Source of the DNA: Pseudomonas phage HHBS47_1
Length of the DNA: 64,000 nt
Sequence record: PQ287649.1
Direction: 5' to 3' (one strand)
Shown: one piece after another, positions 5,045 through 52,968 of the stretch
How positions within the stretch are numbered: the first letter of the stretch is position 1
Layout of the letters: the number at the start of each line of letters is the position of its first letter
Program-made: the position numbers and the translations under genes
The notes under the pieces: generated by a model
What the model was told of the DNA's origin: nothing
Databases searched by the model: none
Seen by the model: only the letters and a program-made list of their open reading frames with translations

Positions 5045-5068
5045 CAAACCTACATCATTAGGGTGAAG
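5045..5068 (+). promoter_or_regulatory. putative phage promoter, variant motif caaACCTACATCATTAGGGTGAAg
   Basis: Variant of the recurring GGTCTATATTACTTGGGTG motif; lies 40 nt upstream of a small ORF in the divergent region. Confidence 0.3.
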
Positions 5069-5107
5069 CACAGACAGAGACCGTTTAACGGTCAAGGAGA
5101 CTTGTCA

Positions 5108-5266
5108 ATGAATACCCTTCAGGCTAAAGTTGAAAGCCTGCGTCAAAAAGCTCGTCGTTATGCCCGTCAGGCGATGTGTTCCCTAGAACCGTCTTACCGG
5201 CAACATTACCGCCAACTGAGCTACGAAGCCAGCCGTATGGCGGATCGCCTTCAACGCCAACTGTGA
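5108..5266 (+). CDS. hypothetical small protein (52 aa, coiled-coil-like)
   Basis: AAGGAGA RBS 7 nt before ATG 5108; MNTLQAKVESLRQKARRYARQ... Confidence 0.35.
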   Translation: MNTLQAKVESLRQKARRYARQAMCSLEPSYRQHYRQLSYEASRMADRLQRQL

Positions 5267-5304
5267 TTGGTGTTTACCCCCCTTCCCCCACACACAGGTG
5301 TGAG

Positions 5305-5535
5305 ATGAGCAACGTTATCGATATGTTCAGCTGGCGGGACTCGAAGAATAAGCGTTCGAGTCAGTTCTCAGTGCTTCATCGTGAGATCGAAGCACTGTAC
5401 GTCATTCAGAACCGCGCGCTTCAGGAGATCGCTTCAGCGGATACGGTCTTGGCGTATGAACAAGCTAAACTCTTCCTGATGGATGTCAGGATTGAAATCT
5501 ACACCAAAACCATTGCGTTGAGTCAGTGTATCTAA
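5305..5535 (+). CDS. hypothetical small protein (76 aa)
   Basis: ATG 5305 preceded by AGGTG; MSNVIDMFSWRDSKNKRSSQFSVLHREIEALYVIQN... Confidence 0.4.
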   Translation: MSNVIDMFSWRDSKNKRSSQFSVLHREIEALYVIQNRALQEIASADTVLAYEQAKLFLMDVRIEIYTKTIALSQCI

Positions 5536-5554
5536 GGACATTTAACGTCCAGTG

Positions 5555-5580
5555 GTAATCAGGTCTGTATTACTTGGGTG
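5555..5580 (+). promoter_or_regulatory. putative early promoter GTAATCAGGTCTGTATTACTTGGGTG
   Basis: One of four near-identical copies of AGGTCT(A/G)TAT(T/C)AC...GGGTG found 40-100 nt upstream of small plus-strand genes; AT-rich core TATATTAC/TGTATTAC. Confidence 0.4.
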
Positions 5581-5621
5581 TTTAAGTACGCAACATTCAT
5601 TCCTTTTTGGAGGTTTACGCC

Positions 5622-6101
5622 ATGGCTAAACAATCGAACTTCACCATCGCCAACTACAACGCCGTCCTGGAAGCTGTTAAAGCCAACAACGGTTATGTGG
5701 TCGACGTTCACAACAATCGTCGCACTCCGTACCGTGCGGCTGGCATCGCTGCTCTGGTGAAGGGCGAAAGGGTTACCCCGGTGCTGCTGTGCCATGGTTC
5801 CTACTTCTGCCTGAACTCGCTGCACAAGGAAGCCGATGGTTCGGTGACCCTCTCCAGCTGGTCGGTCGGTGTTACCATCTTCACCCACCAACACGGTGGG
5901 CTGGAAGAAGCGATCCAAGCCTACAACAAGGAGCAATCCGAGTGGGCGTTGTCGGGTGGTCAACTGATGCATGTACGCATCTTCGACTACACCGACGAAA
6001 CCGCACCTGTGTTCGGCGAGCCAGTTGATCTGGCAGGCGAAGTCGTGGGTGCGCTGGCAGCACAAGAGCCGATCGCCAAGGTCGACATCCCTGCTCAATA
6101 A
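5622..6101 (+). CDS. hypothetical protein (159 aa), likely early
   Basis: GGAGG RBS, ATG 5622; GC-rich with host-like codon choice (CTG, CGT, GGT, AAC, ATC); directly downstream of the promoter-like motif. Confidence 0.6.
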   Translation: MAKQSNFTIANYNAVLEAVKANNGYVVDVHNNRRTPYRAAGIAALVKGERVTPVLLCHGSYFCLNSLHKEADGSVTLSSWSVGVTIFTHQHGGLEEAIQAYNKEQSEWALSGGQLMHVRIFDYTDETAPVFGEPVDLAGEVVGALAAQEPIAKVDIPAQ

Positions 6102-6146
6102 CGAGCAGTTTTCTGTACGTAATCTGACTTCATTAGGAGCAATGCC

Positions 6147-6554
6147 ATGAGTAATGTAATGCACGTTAGCACCATCGCCGGTCGTACCGCCCTGACGGTG
6201 ATCACACCCGACGACCTGCCGGTTACCAACTGGATGGAAAATGTGCTTGCTGCACAGATCCAGAAAGTGGTTGACGAAGGTAAGGGTTGGCCCAACGACG
6301 CCGAGTTCAAGGTGGAGGTTACCTACCACACTTGGCCACAGGGTTGGGACCGGGAAGTGTACACGCACTTCTTTACCAACCGCGCCGAGCTGGACTCCTA
6401 CATCAAGGACCAGCACGAGTGGGCCCGTTGTGAGGACAACATGGTGAAGATCAAGATCTACAACTGGGACCTCGGTCCGAACTTCATGGAAACTCGTGAG
6501 TTCGGTGGTCCTGAGTTGTGGAACAGCCCTCTGAGCCGTCCTTACTTGACGTAA
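6147..6554 (+). CDS. hypothetical protein (135 aa), likely early
   Basis: TAGGAG RBS; same codon style as 5622 gene; followed by an intrinsic terminator. Confidence 0.6.
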   Translation: MSNVMHVSTIAGRTALTVITPDDLPVTNWMENVLAAQIQKVVDEGKGWPNDAEFKVEVTYHTWPQGWDREVYTHFFTNRAELDSYIKDQHEWARCEDNMVKIKIYNWDLGPNFMETREFGGPELWNSPLSRPYLT

Positions 6555-6563
6555 GGCTAGCGC

Positions 6564-51037: not shown

Positions 51038-51046
51038 CCAGACGAT

Positions 51047-51085
51047 CAGTAGGTAGGGGATACCCCTACCTACTGGTTTCTTTAT
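51047..51085 (+). terminator. intrinsic terminator
   Basis: CAGTAGGTAGGGGatacCCCTACCTACTG followed by GTTTCTTTATTTATTT. Confidence 0.55.
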
Positions 51086-51103
51086 TTATTTGGAGGAAAG
51101 AGA

Positions 51104-52021
51104 ATGGCTGTTATTAATTTGGCTTGGAGTGGTGGGGTGGAATCTGTGGCGATGTATCATAAAGCCATGAAAGCCGGTCATACAGTGAATCCTTGCTTGG
51201 TGAATGCCACAGGCAGTGCGTGCGTGACCTTGGTGGAATTAATAGCACTCGCTAAAGTGGAAGACTATTTCAGAGATCACGCGGATGACTACCCAGGGTC
51301 CATTGGAAAGACCTTCGTGATGATGGACACGAGTATGAGTATTCCTTCCACTTACACCATTGATAGCAATAGACAGAGTCCATTCGTTCATATAGCTAAT
51401 CAATCCCTGAATGTGGTATTGGGGATGATGCAAGCGTCTCGGAGTAACATTCACCTATTCCCCACCACGTGGGTAGGGTTCATACAAGAAGACACCTCAG
51501 AACACACGTTAAACATCAATGAATGGAGTGAAGCAGATTACCAGGTACTGTTGAATCTTCCCGCCACACTCGGTAAATTGGCGGGTACGGATATAGGGTG
51601 TCGTCCATTCATAGCCCCATTGTGGGATATTCCTAAGCGAATCCTTTACAACGATCTTCCCGGAGAGTTGAAAGAGCTAGTACTCCCCAATCTCATTTCA
51701 CATTGGTATACTCTAAAAGAGAACGATGAAGTGGTCCTTACGGTCTCTAAGGAGAAGGAAGTAGAGTGGGAAAGGGCAGGTATCCCTCTACCGACTCAAC
51801 GCTTTGTCTTTCGTTTGAAAGACTCCACCCCTGCGATGAGGTTATTGGTAGGGTTGCCCACCCCTAAAGACCTAGAGATAGAAGATGATCTTGGTGGAAC
51901 ACTGCATGAGATCACCCAGGGTATCATCAGGAGGAAATCCGGTTACTGGATGAACGATTATGAAGAAGTTAAGGGGGTTTATCTGGATGTGATTAATGAT
52001 ATCTTACGGAGTAGAGAATAG
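51104..52021 (+). CDS. PP-loop (SGGxDS-type) ATP pyrophosphatase superfamily protein
   Basis: N-terminal AVINLAWSGGVESVAMYH is a PP-loop motif (QueC/TilS/PAPS-reductase-like fold). Lower GC and different codon usage than the flanking genome. Confidence 0.5.
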   Translation: MAVINLAWSGGVESVAMYHKAMKAGHTVNPCLVNATGSACVTLVELIALAKVEDYFRDHADDYPGSIGKTFVMMDTSMSIPSTYTIDSNRQSPFVHIANQSLNVVLGMMQASRSNIHLFPTTWVGFIQEDTSEHTLNINEWSEADYQVLLNLPATLGKLAGTDIGCRPFIAPLWDIPKRILYNDLPGELKELVLPNLISHWYTLKENDEVVLTVSKEKEVEWERAGIPLPTQRFVFRLKDSTPAMRLLVGLPTPKDLEIEDDLGGTLHEITQGIIRRKSGYWMNDYEEVKGVYLDVINDILRSRE

Positions 52022-52044
52022 CCTTTAACACTGGAGTATTCGTT

Positions 52045-52224
52045 ATGGCTAACAACGATGTTAAAATCGACCGTAAACTACTGGAATCCCTCGGTAAGGT
52101 TTACGATCATATTCCTGAAGAACGCCGTCCGTACGACCCCAGCAGACCTGAAGGGGATGCGGGTATCCTCAAGACGTATGAGAAACCCAAGCAATTCAAC
52201 TTTGAAATAAAAATCGGGAAATGA
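52045..52224 (+). CDS. small hypothetical protein (59 aa)
   Basis: GGAG RBS 8 nt upstream; stop overlaps the tmk start (ATGA). Confidence 0.35.
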   Translation: MANNDVKIDRKLLESLGKVYDHIPEERRPYDPSRPEGDAGILKTYEKPKQFNFEIKIGK

Positions 52225-52874
52225 CTATGAATTTCGCTAGTCTCTACTCTGGGATGTTTTGTGTGGTGGAAGGGTTGGATGGAACGGGTAAGACCACTGT
52301 TGTTAATCGCATTGCGAACTGGTTAGTAGAACGTGGTGTGGATGTGGTTAAGACCCGAGAACCAGGTGGGACTCCGTACTGTAACCGTATCAGGGAATTG
52401 CTCCTGTCGCTGGATGAGGGTGGAGAAGGCCCTTGCCAAATGACGGAACTCCTGTTGTTCAATGCGGCTCGGGTACAACACCTTGAAACCTTGGTTAAAC
52501 CCAGCTTACAAGCCGGGAAGTTTGTACTCTGTGATCGGTATGTGCATACGACCATAGCGTACCAAGGGGAAGCCAGGGGATTGGGCGTGGGGAAGATCCT
52601 GGAGTTACACCGCTTACTGACCCAAGACTTCTGGCCTCACTTTACGTTCATTTTGGATGCGCCGGTTGAGGTGGTGTTGGAACGGGTCTATCAACGGGGT
52701 AGTATGAACCGTCTGGATTCTCAAACGGTTGAATTCTATGAAAAGGCCCGTACAGCGTATCGTCGTATGGGGCAGACAGGCCGTGATTGCGCACTCATTG
52801 ACGCCACTGTGAGTGAAGACGAGGTGTTCAATCAAATGACCACCTATCTGGAACGCCTGTGTAATAAATATTAG
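52221..52874 (+). CDS. tmk: thymidylate (dTMP) kinase
   Basis: CVVEGLDGTGKTT (P-loop), TREPGGT, ARVQ, DRYVHTTIAYQG, FILDAPVEV; full-length collinear match to the Tmk family. Confidence 0.8.
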   Translation: MTMNFASLYSGMFCVVEGLDGTGKTTVVNRIANWLVERGVDVVKTREPGGTPYCNRIRELLLSLDEGGEGPCQMTELLLFNAARVQHLETLVKPSLQAGKFVLCDRYVHTTIAYQGEARGLGVGKILELHRLLTQDFWPHFTFILDAPVEVVLERVYQRGSMNRLDSQTVEFYEKARTAYRRMGQTGRDCALIDATVSEDEVFNQMTTYLERLCNKY

Positions 52875-52884
52875 AACACATCGC

Positions 52885-52925
52885 TACTGCCTAGCCGTAA
52901 TGGGCTAGGCAGTAGGTTGTCGTAT
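52885..52925 (+). terminator. intrinsic terminator
   Basis: CTACTGCCTAGCCgtaatGGGCTAGGCAGTAG followed by GTTGTCGTATTTT. Confidence 0.5.
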
Positions 52926-52942
52926 TTTAACTTGCATGTTCT

Positions 52943-52968
52943 TTGAGGTCTATATCACTAGGGTGAAT
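52943..52968 (+). promoter_or_regulatory. putative early promoter TTTGAGGTCTATATCACTAGGGTGAA
   Basis: Fourth copy of the motif, 43 nt upstream of ATG 53011. Confidence 0.4.

Follow-up and report, generated by a model that had tools for sequence, protein, structure and literature searches.

Putative early promoters of an EL-like jumbo phage, probably read by the virion RNA polymerase

Results

Genes and candidate promoters in the window

The window, i.e. the whole 64-kb stretch of DNA that was analyzed, is ~98% identical to Pseudomonas phage EL, a phiKZ-related jumbo phage (genus Elvirus). It contains the following RNA polymerase (RNAP) genes:

34381..42509, +, presumed virion RNA polymerase cluster (ORFs 34381-35826, 37775-40978 and 41433-42509)
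19634..20311, +, small RNA polymerase subunit ORF, homologue of EL gp175 (phrog_3233, E=2.4e-82)

The three cluster ORFs match PHROGs annotated as 'RNA polymerase beta subunit' (E=5e-192, 0 and 5.5e-118, respectively), backing the claim of an earlier note on this DNA that a split RNAP is encoded here. The cluster is interrupted by two group I introns and its ORFs do not match the solved chains of the phiKZ non-virion RNAP, while the gp175 homologue has no match in the PDB. Presumably, the cluster encodes the virion enzyme, which we propose as the reader of the promoters described below.

Six sites carrying a recurrent motif had been reported, and all six were located, all on the plus strand:

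5035..5066, +, candidate early promoter 1, canonical EL type, AGGTTCTTTTCAAACCTACATCATTAGGGTGA (33.8 bits; 1 mismatch to the EL consensus); core CTACATCAT at 5050-5058, predicted start site G5065
5550..5581, +, candidate early promoter 2, TATATTAC type, here CTGTATTAC (25.0 bits); predicted start G5580
6839..6870, +, candidate early promoter 3, TATATTAC type (31.9 bits); predicted start G6869; kept in relatives
22074..22105, +, candidate early promoter 4, canonical EL type (35.3 bits; 1 mismatch to the EL consensus); predicted start G22104
47659..47690, +, candidate early promoter 5, TATATTAC type (35.0 bits); predicted start G47689, leader of 98 nt
52935..52966, +, candidate early promoter 6, TATATCAC variant (26.1 bits); predicted start G52965
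52884..52915, +, perfect 13-bp hairpin ending the upstream operon, 19 nt before the promoter 6 span and 34 nt before its core

Near-identical copies of AGGTCTATATTACTTGGGTG, with 1-3 mismatches, lie on the plus strand at 5561-5580, 6850-6869, 47670-47689 and 52946-52965; 0.02 such copies are expected, and none of 100 shuffles gave four matches. The sites at 5041-5059 and 22080-22098 each have a single mismatch to the published EL consensus WTTTYAAACCTACATTATY. When the window was searched with a 32-nt profile of the family, only these six sites were recovered, with no further match of at least 5 bits on either strand. All six are retained in five Elvirus genomes, substitutions being confined to degenerate positions. 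The recurrent motif is thus real. Its reported division into four good copies and two looser variants, on the other hand, has to be reversed, as sites 1 and 4 represent the canonical EL form and are among the top-scoring sites.

Promoter 1 is homologous to EL 164008-164026, which is annotated as 'putative phage promoter', and is kept in five Elvirus genomes; promoter 4 is the counterpart of the annotated promoter at EL 181063-181081, and reaches with its upstream end into the start codon of a divergent minus-strand gene ending at 22076. Promoters 2 and 3 are paralogous cassettes, both without the TTT block and with AAT in its place. At the position of promoter 2, relatives carry CTATATTAC, and the EL record has no annotation there. 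A motif near-identical to promoter 5 is found in two uncultivated jumbo-phage contigs (L025 and L029). Promoter 6, whose counterpart in the EL record is at position 27, has the same sequence in GXNNE2 and IR-QUMS. Sites 1 and 6 have additional upstream sequence in common, TTTAAC among it, as do sites 2 and 3.

Each site is followed by a plus-strand gene:

5108..5266, +, after promoter 1, homologue of EL gp159, 52 aa, function unknown, with ribosome-binding site
5622..6101, +, after promoter 2, homologue of EL gp161, 159 aa, function unknown
6931..7278, +, after promoter 3, homologue of EL gp163, Arc-like ribbon-helix-helix DNA-binding protein (Pfam PF03869, E=1.9e-14)
22126..22704, +, after promoter 4, homologue of EL gp179, 192 aa, function unknown (phrog_15064, E=6e-79)
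47787..48227, +, after promoter 5, homologue of EL gp194 (phrog_13587; EL annotation)
53011..53532, +, after promoter 6, homologue of EL gp001, 173 aa, first of a four-gene plus-strand block

Pfam and PHROG searches with the gp159 homologue returned no match, while the gp163 homologue also matches Arc-like regulators in PHROG. The block headed by the gp194 homologue extends to a thymidylate kinase gene (52221-52874). The gp001 homologue is labelled 'repressor' in GXNNE2, a putative assignment. A Shine-Dalgarno sequence precedes each of the six start codons, which lie 43, 42, 62, 22, 98 and 46 nt from the conserved G of sites 1-6, respectively, in agreement with the reported 17-100 nt. The description of these genes as GC-rich did not hold: the homologous EL genes have GC fractions of 0.53, 0.57, 0.48, 0.47, 0.52 and 0.475, against 0.493 for the genome. 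Similarly, a location just after a terminator, said to be usual, applies within the window to site 6 only, but across the EL genome to 13 of 21 sites. The intergenic regions that hold sites 1 and 4 are divergent, and site 3 has a terminator ~260 nt upstream. The hairpin before promoter 6 does not pass the terminator scan, which applies a simple T-tract criterion; the homologous stretch of EL has a folding energy of −31.4 kcal/mol.

A family of 21 co-oriented intergenic sites in the EL genome

A profile search of the EL genome defined a family of 21 sites, with scores of 26-38 bits and one of 18.4 bits, the next best match reaching 8.2 bits. In 30 random Markov genomes, maxima ranged from 6.8 to 16.3 bits, and 0.03 matches are expected at a threshold of 15 bits. 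A motif distributed at random relative to genes in the full genome would, according to the earlier note, have spoken against promoters. In EL, however, all 21 sites are on the plus strand, intergenic (7.6% of the genome) and upstream of a co-oriented gene, the core lying 31-113 nt ahead of the next plus-strand gene start (329 nt in one case). Of the 22 structural or packaging genes, not one is among the 109 genes that make up the motif-headed blocks (Fisher p=7e-9). Elsewhere in EL, such operons encode the nuclear shell protein, the PhuZ tubulin, non-virion RNAP subunits, among them a homologue of phiKZ gp74, and replication genes. The RNAP cluster and the gp175 homologue lie outside these blocks.

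The architecture of the EL sites is CTAYATTAY-(6N)-G, with an invariant G. Outside the positions used for selection, all 19 seed sites and the two newly found ones have G at +15, while 18 of 19 have A at −4 and 19 of 19 a pyrimidine at +9. About half of the EL sites use TACATTAT in place of TATATTAC. The four TATATTAC-type copies do not fit the published consensus WTTTYAAACCTACATTATY, and a profile built from the annotated EL promoters only scores them at 13.7, 5.7, 2.6 and <2.2 bits, i.e. in the random range. They join the family through intermediate sites and the common architecture. Sites 2, 3, 5 and 6 are an unannotated sub-type, in the form seen in phiKZ, 201phi2-1, OBP and RisingSun.

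These data bear on whether the sites are ordinary host sigma-70 promoters, with TAYATT as −10 hexamer and early genes transcribed by the host RNAP. Some recognition by the host polymerase is possible from the sequence, since TATATT matches TATAAT at 5 of 6 positions; moreover, TTAAC occurs ~18 nt upstream of the hexamer in four of the six window sites, and site 3 passes a relaxed sigma-70 scan (TTAACT-18-TATATT, 9/12 matches). However, site 3 is the only one of the six to do so, and scan counts do not exceed those of shuffles. There is no conserved −35 element: among 19 EL sites, the corresponding region, about −24 to −17 from the core, holds at most 0.36 bits per position. Conservation instead sits where sigma-70 promoters have none, namely in the TTTYAAAY spacer, the C before the hexamer, the two pyrimidines after it and the invariant G 8 nt past it. 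Together with the restriction of the motif to one strand, its absence ahead of structural genes and the reported rifampicin insensitivity of phiKZ infection, this makes host promoters highly improbable.

Comparison with mapped promoters of related phages

According to reviews, all RNAP-encoding jumbo phages have an AT-rich motif of ~10 nt whose centre lies near −10 relative to early start sites (PMC7598289), and transcription in phiKZ and phiR1-37 starts 6 nt downstream of the consensus (PMC5312081). For phiKZ, Ceyssens 2014 and Wicke 2020 (cited via PMC8244752 and PMC7598289) give 28-32 early promoters, all on the leading strand and with a T-rich TTTRAGA block upstream of the core. TATATTAC is itself listed as a phiKZ promoter in Table 2 of PMC7058600, where the EL consensus WTTTYAAACCTACATTATY is attributed to Hertveldt 2005; the link that the earlier note drew between the AT-rich core and phiKZ-type early promoters was thus right. 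With the mapped early promoters of phiKZ, AR9 and 201phi2-1, the window sites have in common the core sequence, the upstream TTTYARR block (lacking in AR9, see below), a G exactly 6 nt past the core, and the bias in strand, position and gene class.

The first 50 kb of phiKZ contain seven TATATTAC sites, all on the plus strand and each followed by 6N-G. PHIKZ054, the nuclear-shell gene, has one of them 80 nt ahead of it and is reported to have a primary start site with the early motif. In contrast to the AT-rich flanks in phiKZ, those in EL are GC-richer (GGTC...GGGTG), and start sites are mapped in phiKZ but predicted in EL. The early consensus of 201phi2-1, TTAWTAVAA_HYWTTTRARR_BTATATTACDWHDGTG, whose start sites were determined by ONT-cappable-seq, is likewise built of blocks at −30, −20 and −10. 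Two mismatches separate site 5, and also site 6, from the 24 nt at its 3' end (0.04 such matches expected), whereas the TTT block is missing from sites 2 and 3 and the far-upstream element is TTTAAC in the window but TTAWTA in 201phi2-1. Predicted early promoters of OBP and N1M2 (…TTTYARRYAKATATTATYWWADTG) have the same layout and GTG end. For the site upstream of the OBP nuclear-shell gene, the EL profile gives 33.6 bits, although OBP prefers ...AKATATTAT and no window site matches the OBP consensus string with three mismatches or fewer. The AR9 early promoter, AAATATATATTAT-(6N)-G(+1), was mapped by dRNA-seq and is chloramphenicol-resistant; its TATATTAT-(6N)-G spacing and G start are identical to the EL architecture, but AR9 infects Bacillus, has uracil-containing DNA and a longer AT-rich block, and lacks the TTTYARR and GTG context.

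Within the EL record NC_007623, window sites 1 and 4 are two of nine annotated putative phage promoters, against the 21 family members counted here; sites 2, 3, 5 and 6 are unannotated and fall outside the 19-nt consensus, beyond which the motif extends to the invariant G 15 nt past the core C. A strong match also precedes the nuclear-shell gene by ~95-112 nt in EL, Erwinia phage RisingSun, Pseudomonas phage OBP and Klebsiella phage Miami, an orthologous position in three other genera, while the surrounding intergenic DNA is otherwise dissimilar among the four. An exact degenerate pattern occurs in 15 viral contigs, mostly of 84-309 kb, and in all nine loci with at least two matches these are co-oriented.

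Could the sites be something other than promoters, such as binding sites of a regulator (e.g. an Arc-like protein) or signals in RNA or DNA for processing, replication or packaging? The Arc-like gene directly behind site 3 and the additional upstream sequence, TTTAAC included, common to sites 1/6 and 2/3 would fit such a role. Yet the motif lacks symmetry, unlike ribbon-helix-helix operators, which usually consist of repeats; it always has the orientation of the downstream genes and lies at promoter-like distances from them; the leaders are no more structured than expected (mean z −0.38); and in phiKZ, AR9 and 201phi2-1, mapped start sites fall at the homologous motifs. We find a non-promoter function barely credible.

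Discussion

For these sites we infer a promoter role, the exact start position, early timing and the identity of the polymerase. Regarding the latter two, the sites might belong to the non-virion RNAP or a modified form of it, and be middle-class or continuous rather than immediate-early. The class of downstream genes alone cannot separate early from middle expression, and in 201phi2-1 some non-virion RNAP subunit genes are behind middle or late promoters. The reported promoters of this enzyme differ, however, from the window motif: phiKZ late promoters have TATG at the start site, phiKZ middle promoters an AT-rich or TACT motif near −22 to −24 and AR9 late promoters AACA-(6N)-TA/G, whereas the window motif agrees with early promoters in its core, its spacing and the nucleotide at the start. 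Moreover, motif-headed operons argue against the non-virion RNAP as reader because they encode a homologue of one of its subunits, which must precede that enzyme. This reading is very unlikely.

Judged from sequence comparison, the six sites are very probably phage-specific early promoters of an EL-like jumbo phage (Elvirus, Chimalliviridae), read by the virion RNAP. A multisubunit virion polymerase, most of whose genes are in the window, would be carried in the capsid and injected along with the DNA, and would recognize on double-stranded DNA an element of ~30 nt comprising, from 5' to 3', a YAG block near −30, TTTYARR near −20, the core CTAYATTAY at −15 to −7 and GTG at −2 to +1. Melting of the AT-rich core would allow RNA to begin at the invariant G 6 nt downstream of it, with predicted 5' ends at 5065, 5580, 6869, 22104, 47689 and 52965. 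Initiation would require neither host RNAP nor new protein synthesis, and transcription would run to the right along short operons whose small proteins mostly have no known function but include the Arc-like DNA-binding protein. The finding is sound but ordinary: two of the sites (1 and 4) were already known as annotated promoters in the EL reference record NC_007623, and the promoter class is one already described for the phiKZ-related phage group.

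Reference genomes

Pseudomonas phage EL (NC_007623; genus Elvirus; 211,215 bp) is a phiKZ-related jumbo phage, and such phages encode two multisubunit RNA polymerases. Over a 12-kb piece, the window is 97-98% identical to EL and to its relatives phiRU, IR-QUMS-PaBa1, MIZ-Pa99, GXNNE2 and GXNNA8. The start of the EL record falls inside the window, where position ~52.9 kb corresponds to EL position 27. Genome-wide counts were made on the whole annotated EL genome. A literature search retrieved no published transcript data for EL or any Elvirus. The phage vB_PQ1 (PQ516283.1) was considered as a divergent relative for footprinting and dropped as a fragmented, error-rich EL-like assembly with split genes. 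Its record holds 488 features in 184 kb, including many small broken coding sequences and repeated ~188-nt features labelled 'CRISPR' within coding regions. Both peculiarities are most likely sequencing or assembly artefacts, making the record unsuitable for comparison.

Six motif sites in the window

Both strands of the window were scanned with a 32-nt profile, which recovered six sites, all on the plus strand. A seventh was not found, as no other position on either strand scores 5 bits.

Motif sites in the window, with 32-nt profile scores and with starts and leaders predicted from the AR9/phiKZ spacing rule
Site 1: 5035-5066, +; 33.8 bits; match to the EL consensus at 5041-5059; predicted start G5065, leader 43 nt
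Site 2: 5550-5581, +; 25.0 bits; near-identical copy at 5561-5580; predicted start G5580, leader 42 nt
Site 3: 6839-6870, +; 31.9 bits; near-identical copy at 6850-6869; predicted start G6869, leader 62 nt
Site 4: 22074-22105, +; 35.3 bits; match to the EL consensus at 22080-22098; predicted start G22104, leader 22 nt
Site 5: 47659-47690, +; 35.0 bits; near-identical copy at 47670-47689; predicted start G47689, leader 98 nt
Site 6: 52935-52966, +; 26.1 bits; near-identical copy at 52946-52965; predicted start G52965, leader 46 nt

The four near-identical copies described in the earlier note are indeed present, each with 1-3 mismatches to the 20-mer proposed there; 0.02 were expected by chance and none of 100 shuffles gave four matches. 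Its ranking of the sites has to be reversed, however. Sites 1 and 4, which it regarded as looser variants, represent the canonical, already published form, since they have one mismatch each to the EL promoter consensus WTTTYAAACCTACATTATY (PMC7058600, Table 2) and correspond to two of the nine 'putative phage promoter' features in the EL record (EL 164008-164026 and 181063-181081, respectively). It is the four near-identical copies that are unannotated. The published 19-nt consensus fits sites 1 and 4 only, sites 2, 3, 5 and 6 having more than 3 mismatches. Likewise, a narrow profile built from seven annotated EL promoters, all outside the window region, assigns 27.7 bits to site 4 and 23.7 bits to site 1, while the four TATATTAC-type copies score 13.7, 5.7, 2.6 and <2.2 bits. 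These last values lie within the random range (mean maximum 9.6 bits, highest 18.3), which is probably why the copies were never annotated.

One putative promoter architecture throughout the EL genome

Nineteen EL seed sites were chosen solely by the 9-nt core [CT]TA[CT]AT[CT]A[CT] or a one-base variant. Counted from the first core base, C0, T1, A2, A4, T5 and A7 are invariant in all 19. The flanks, on which no selection was made, are strongly conserved as well: A is found at -14 in 16/19 and at -4 in 18/19 seeds, and a pyrimidine at +9 and a G at +15 in every one. At -8 to -6 from the core, T occurs in 15, 12 and 16 of the 19 seeds, respectively; this TTT block is present in window sites 1, 4, 5 and 6 and degenerate (AAT) in sites 2 and 3. 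In phiKZ-type promoters, a T-rich or TTTRARR block upstream of about -19 is followed by a highly conserved AT-rich core of about 8-10 nt, TATATTAC or similar, centred near -10; the core reads CTAYATYAY in five of the six window sites and CTGTATTAC in site 2. A G stands exactly 6 nt past the core in 6/6 window and 21/21 EL sites, a sequence feature whose role as transcription start is predicted. The full layout comprises YAG (~-30), TTTYARRY (~-23 to -16), CTAYATTAY (-15 to -7) and nnnnGTG with its last G invariant.

When both EL strands were scanned with the 32-nt profile, 21 sites scored 26-38 bits and one 18.4 bits, followed by a gap down to 8.2 bits. Thirty random Markov genomes peaked at 6.8-16.3 bits, and scores of at least 15 bits are expected 0.03 times. 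Two of the 21 sites were not among the seeds, one of them lying upstream of the nuclear-shell gene gp023. The TATATTAC-type copies join this family on account of intermediate sites of the form AAACCTATATTAC (EL 84865 and EL 149106), the shared invariant positions including the G, and identical strand and position behaviour.

The same architecture bears on the question whether the host sigma-70 polymerase could read these sites. TATATT would serve well as a -10 hexamer. Of the six sites, however, site 3 alone passes a relaxed sigma-70 scan, and the scan counts do not rise above those of shuffles. Moreover, there is no conserved TTGACA-like -35 element 16-18 nt upstream (at most 0.36 bits per position); conservation lies instead in the spacer, around the hexamer and at the G 8 nt past it. 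We consider recognition by sigma-70 highly improbable.

Predicted start sites and leaders

The mapped early consensus of AR9 is AAATATATATTAT-(6N)-G(+1), and transcription in phiKZ and phiR1-37 is reported to start 6 nt downstream of the consensus (PMC5312081); reviews of RNAP-encoding jumbo phages place an AT-rich block near -10 (PMC7598289). By this spacing rule, the invariant G of each window site is the predicted start, and each of the six predicted leaders ends in a Shine-Dalgarno sequence and ATG. A stable 5' hairpin common to the leaders was sought and rejected: the first 40 nt past the predicted start at the 21 EL sites have a mean z of -0.38 against shuffles, and they are less stable than random genomic 40-mers. 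Separately, positions 6876-6891, 7 nt past the predicted start of promoter 3, hold a terminator-like hairpin with a T-run after it (AAGGCGTGGTTGCCTT CCTATTTTTA). This hairpin belongs to the leader of the gene for an Arc-like, ribbon-helix-helix DNA-binding protein and may act as an attenuator.

Distribution relative to genes

Random placement with respect to genes, which the earlier note had named as evidence against promoters, is not what the EL genome displays. All 21 sites are intergenic, on the plus strand and upstream of plus-strand genes, in a genome of which 7.6% is intergenic. The core lies 31-113 nt from the next plus-strand gene start, with one case at 329 nt. This strict co-orientation, the asymmetry of the motif and leaders without excess structure all speak against its being an operator or an RNA element, a reading to which we give hardly any credence.

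We defined a motif-headed block as the run of plus-strand genes after a site up to the next minus-strand gene. The 109 genes in such blocks include none of the 22 annotated in EL as virion, head, tail, terminase or protease ('structural'), all 22 falling among the remaining 92 genes (Fisher p=7e-9). The blocks contain the genes for the nuclear shell protein, PhuZ tubulin, GroEL, DNA polymerase, ligase and helicase, as well as the RNAP subunits gp024, gp038 and gp039. The earlier description of the downstream genes as small and GC-rich applies to the window in size (52-192 aa) but not consistently in composition (GC 0.47-0.57 versus 0.493), and genome-wide in EL the motif heads large genes too. 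Similarly, a position just after a terminator is usual in EL, where 13/21 sites have a strong hairpin in the 95 nt before them, but in the window it holds for site 6 only; site 3 follows a terminator at a distance of ~260 nt, and sites 1 and 4 are located between divergent genes.

Among intergenic 8-mers of EL, GGTAGGGG and CCCCTACC are the most over-represented, 18 of the 28 copies in the genome being intergenic. Long perfect, terminator-like hairpins are formed by them (in the window at 51044-51078 and 6562-6592, for example). These are often found just 5' of early promoters and resemble the conserved terminator motifs reported for phiKZ and 201phi2-1. Inspection by eye of sequences upstream of the window's non-early plus- and minus-strand operons revealed no convincing shared motif beyond scattered TATG.

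Sub-types and an upstream block

Core positions 3 and 8 covary (T3/C8 at 7 sites, C3/T8 at 9, mixed at 2; p=0.003), which indicates two sub-types within one architecture. The TATATTAC type comprises the four near-identical window copies and four other EL sites, while the TACATTAT type is Elvirus-specific and corresponds to the published EL consensus. Given this covariation, the sub-classes could be unlike in strength or in time of expression (one immediate-early and one delayed-early, for instance), and could be read by different forms of the polymerase.

Promoter regions are also pairwise alike over ~40 nt beyond the family motif (5525-5581 with 6814-6870, and 5010-5066 with 52910-52966), an example of the shared upstream sequence being TTAAC(G/T)TC(C/T)AGT(G/T)GTAATCAGGTCT. 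TTTAAC occurs ~33-38 nt before the predicted start in promoters 1, 2, 3 and 6. The pairs 2/3 and 1/6 suggest either duplicated promoter cassettes or an extra upstream element like the -30/-35 block of 201phi2-1. TTTAAC might serve the early Arc-like protein as an operator, which, if true, would provide a shut-off circuit for early transcription. The joint reading, with two real sub-classes possibly unlike in strength, timing or polymerase form and TTTAAC as a possible Arc-like operator, strikes us as unlikely. The Arc-like protein itself (6931-7278) matches Pfam PF03869 (E=1.9e-14); the label 'partition protein ATPase' carried by its EL homologue gp163 in RefSeq looks like a mis-annotation.

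Conservation in other phages

EL, phiRU, GXNNE2, IR-QUMS and MIZ-Pa99 all retain the six window sites, with changes at degenerate positions only; site 2, for instance, reads CTGTATTAC in the window and CTATATTAC in relatives. Conservation also extends beyond Elvirus. Four phages from as many genera, EL among them, have a strong match to the EL profile ~95-112 nt ahead of the nuclear-shell gene, in intergenic DNA that is otherwise dissimilar.

Profile matches upstream of the nuclear-shell gene
EL (Pseudomonas): 34.6 bits
OBP (Pseudomonas): 33.6 bits
RisingSun (Erwinia): 25.5 bits; 48% protein identity
Miami (Klebsiella): 19.0 bits

The six window positions themselves were compared within Elvirus. 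A 42-kb stretch of RisingSun contains six matches of at least 25 bits, all on the plus strand and, as in EL, including sites before the tubulin and gp033-like genes. Homologues of the window's early genes were absent from the RisingSun and phiKZ stretches at E≤1e-3, and when IMG/VR was searched with the genes that follow promoters 4 and 5, to find divergent homologues, only EL itself was returned.

The first 50 kb of phiKZ hold seven TATATTAC sites, all on the plus strand and, as in EL, with a TTTRAGA-like block before and a G six nt after. One of them precedes PHIKZ054 by 80 nt, and for this gene a primary start site with the early motif has been reported. Independently of the EL profile, the published early consensus of 201phi2-1 recovers sites 5 and 6, each at two mismatches (0.04 matches expected); the OBP consensus string has no match in the window within 3 mismatches. 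A degenerate pattern of the TATATTAC sub-type has exact matches in 15 IMG/VR contigs, which are mostly 84-309 kb long, and in 9/9 loci with at least two profile matches these are co-oriented. Taken together, the comparisons indicate that the four copies fit a clade-wide promoter form better than the narrow EL consensus.

The DNA between the divergent virion structural and nuclear-shell genes (EL 25848-25900) holds another element, CTATTATATGTAAA, which reads TTTACATATAATAG on the strand of the structural gene. RisingSun, OBP and Miami conserve this element and EL does so in part; it is a candidate late promoter containing TATG/TATA.

RNA polymerase genes

In line with the split RNAP of the earlier note, four window ORFs match RNAP families in PHROGs (E from 2.4e-82 down to 0); eight RNAP-subunit coding sequences are annotated in EL. 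Part of the split is probably due to introns. In the region 35827-37778, a group I intron carrying an HNH endonuclease ORF (35909-37180) appears to interrupt the RNAP gene that begins with ORF 34381-35826. The whole window has no Rfam match at gathering thresholds, and Intron_gpI matches 37177-37549 at 46.2 bits (E=4.4e-10), below its gathering score of 50. Some 60 unannotated codons at ~37575-37775 probably constitute exon 2, as over 60 other jumbo phages have this stretch, at 50-70% identity, within their 'RNA polymerase beta subunit' genes. Further downstream, ORFs 37775-40978 and 41433-42509 together span a single PHROG family over its full length (residues 2-1050 and 1065-1423 of 1424). 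Between them lies a 412-nt insertion (40979-41391) that is absent from GXNNE2, where the gene is a single 1440-aa coding sequence; with an Intron_gpI match at 40941-41345 (39.3 bits, E=1.5e-8), the insertion is probably an ORF-less group I intron, which would account for part of the split. Outside the window, residues ~247-315 of EL gp039 (EL 44708-47818) match the N-terminal splicing region of DnaB/gp41-1-type inteins (E=3e-9), which suggests an intein within this RNAP subunit.

The window RNAP ORFs lie outside motif-headed blocks, beside virion and head-protease genes, and match none of the solved non-virion RNAP chains. A homologous segment is annotated 'virion-associated' in one other phage. 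We infer that the window ORFs belong to the virion enzyme, which would be injected with the phage DNA. EL gp039, on the other hand, resembles the phiKZ non-virion RNAP subunit gp74 (7OGP chain D, E=2.6e-23). In the scheme described for phiKZ, the injected virion RNAP reads early promoters, the non-virion RNAP genes are among the early genes and the virion RNAP genes are late, the same logic as that of block membership in EL. Reading of the motif by the non-virion enzyme is very unlikely: its reported middle and late motifs differ from this one, and the motif heads operons for a non-virion RNAP subunit homologue.

Discussion

The sequence evidence supports reading the motif sites as very probable phiKZ-type early promoters of the virion RNAP. 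The promoter class is already known, its occurrence in EL is published, and two of the six window sites match annotated EL promoters, so current concepts are unchanged. What is added are four unannotated sub-type sites in the window and 12 unannotated ones in EL, an extended consensus with an invariant, predicted start G, gene-class statistics and cross-genus positional conservation. 'Unannotated' refers to the EL record; some of the sites may be in the 2005 EL paper, and the OBP and AR9 genome papers might also list some.

The result is a fuller early-promoter map for Elvirus, with 21 sites, six of them in the window, compared with nine annotated. Its single-nucleotide start-site predictions can be checked by 5' RACE or cappable-seq, and the sites can serve as templates for in vitro work on how a sigma-less virion RNA polymerase finds its promoters. 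The extended consensus TTTYARRYCTAYATTAY-(6N)-G is common to phages of Pseudomonas, Erwinia, Klebsiella and Vibrio and to uncultivated jumbo phages. Finally, the sites mark out an early gene set consisting mostly of small proteins of unknown function, which are likely host-takeover factors.
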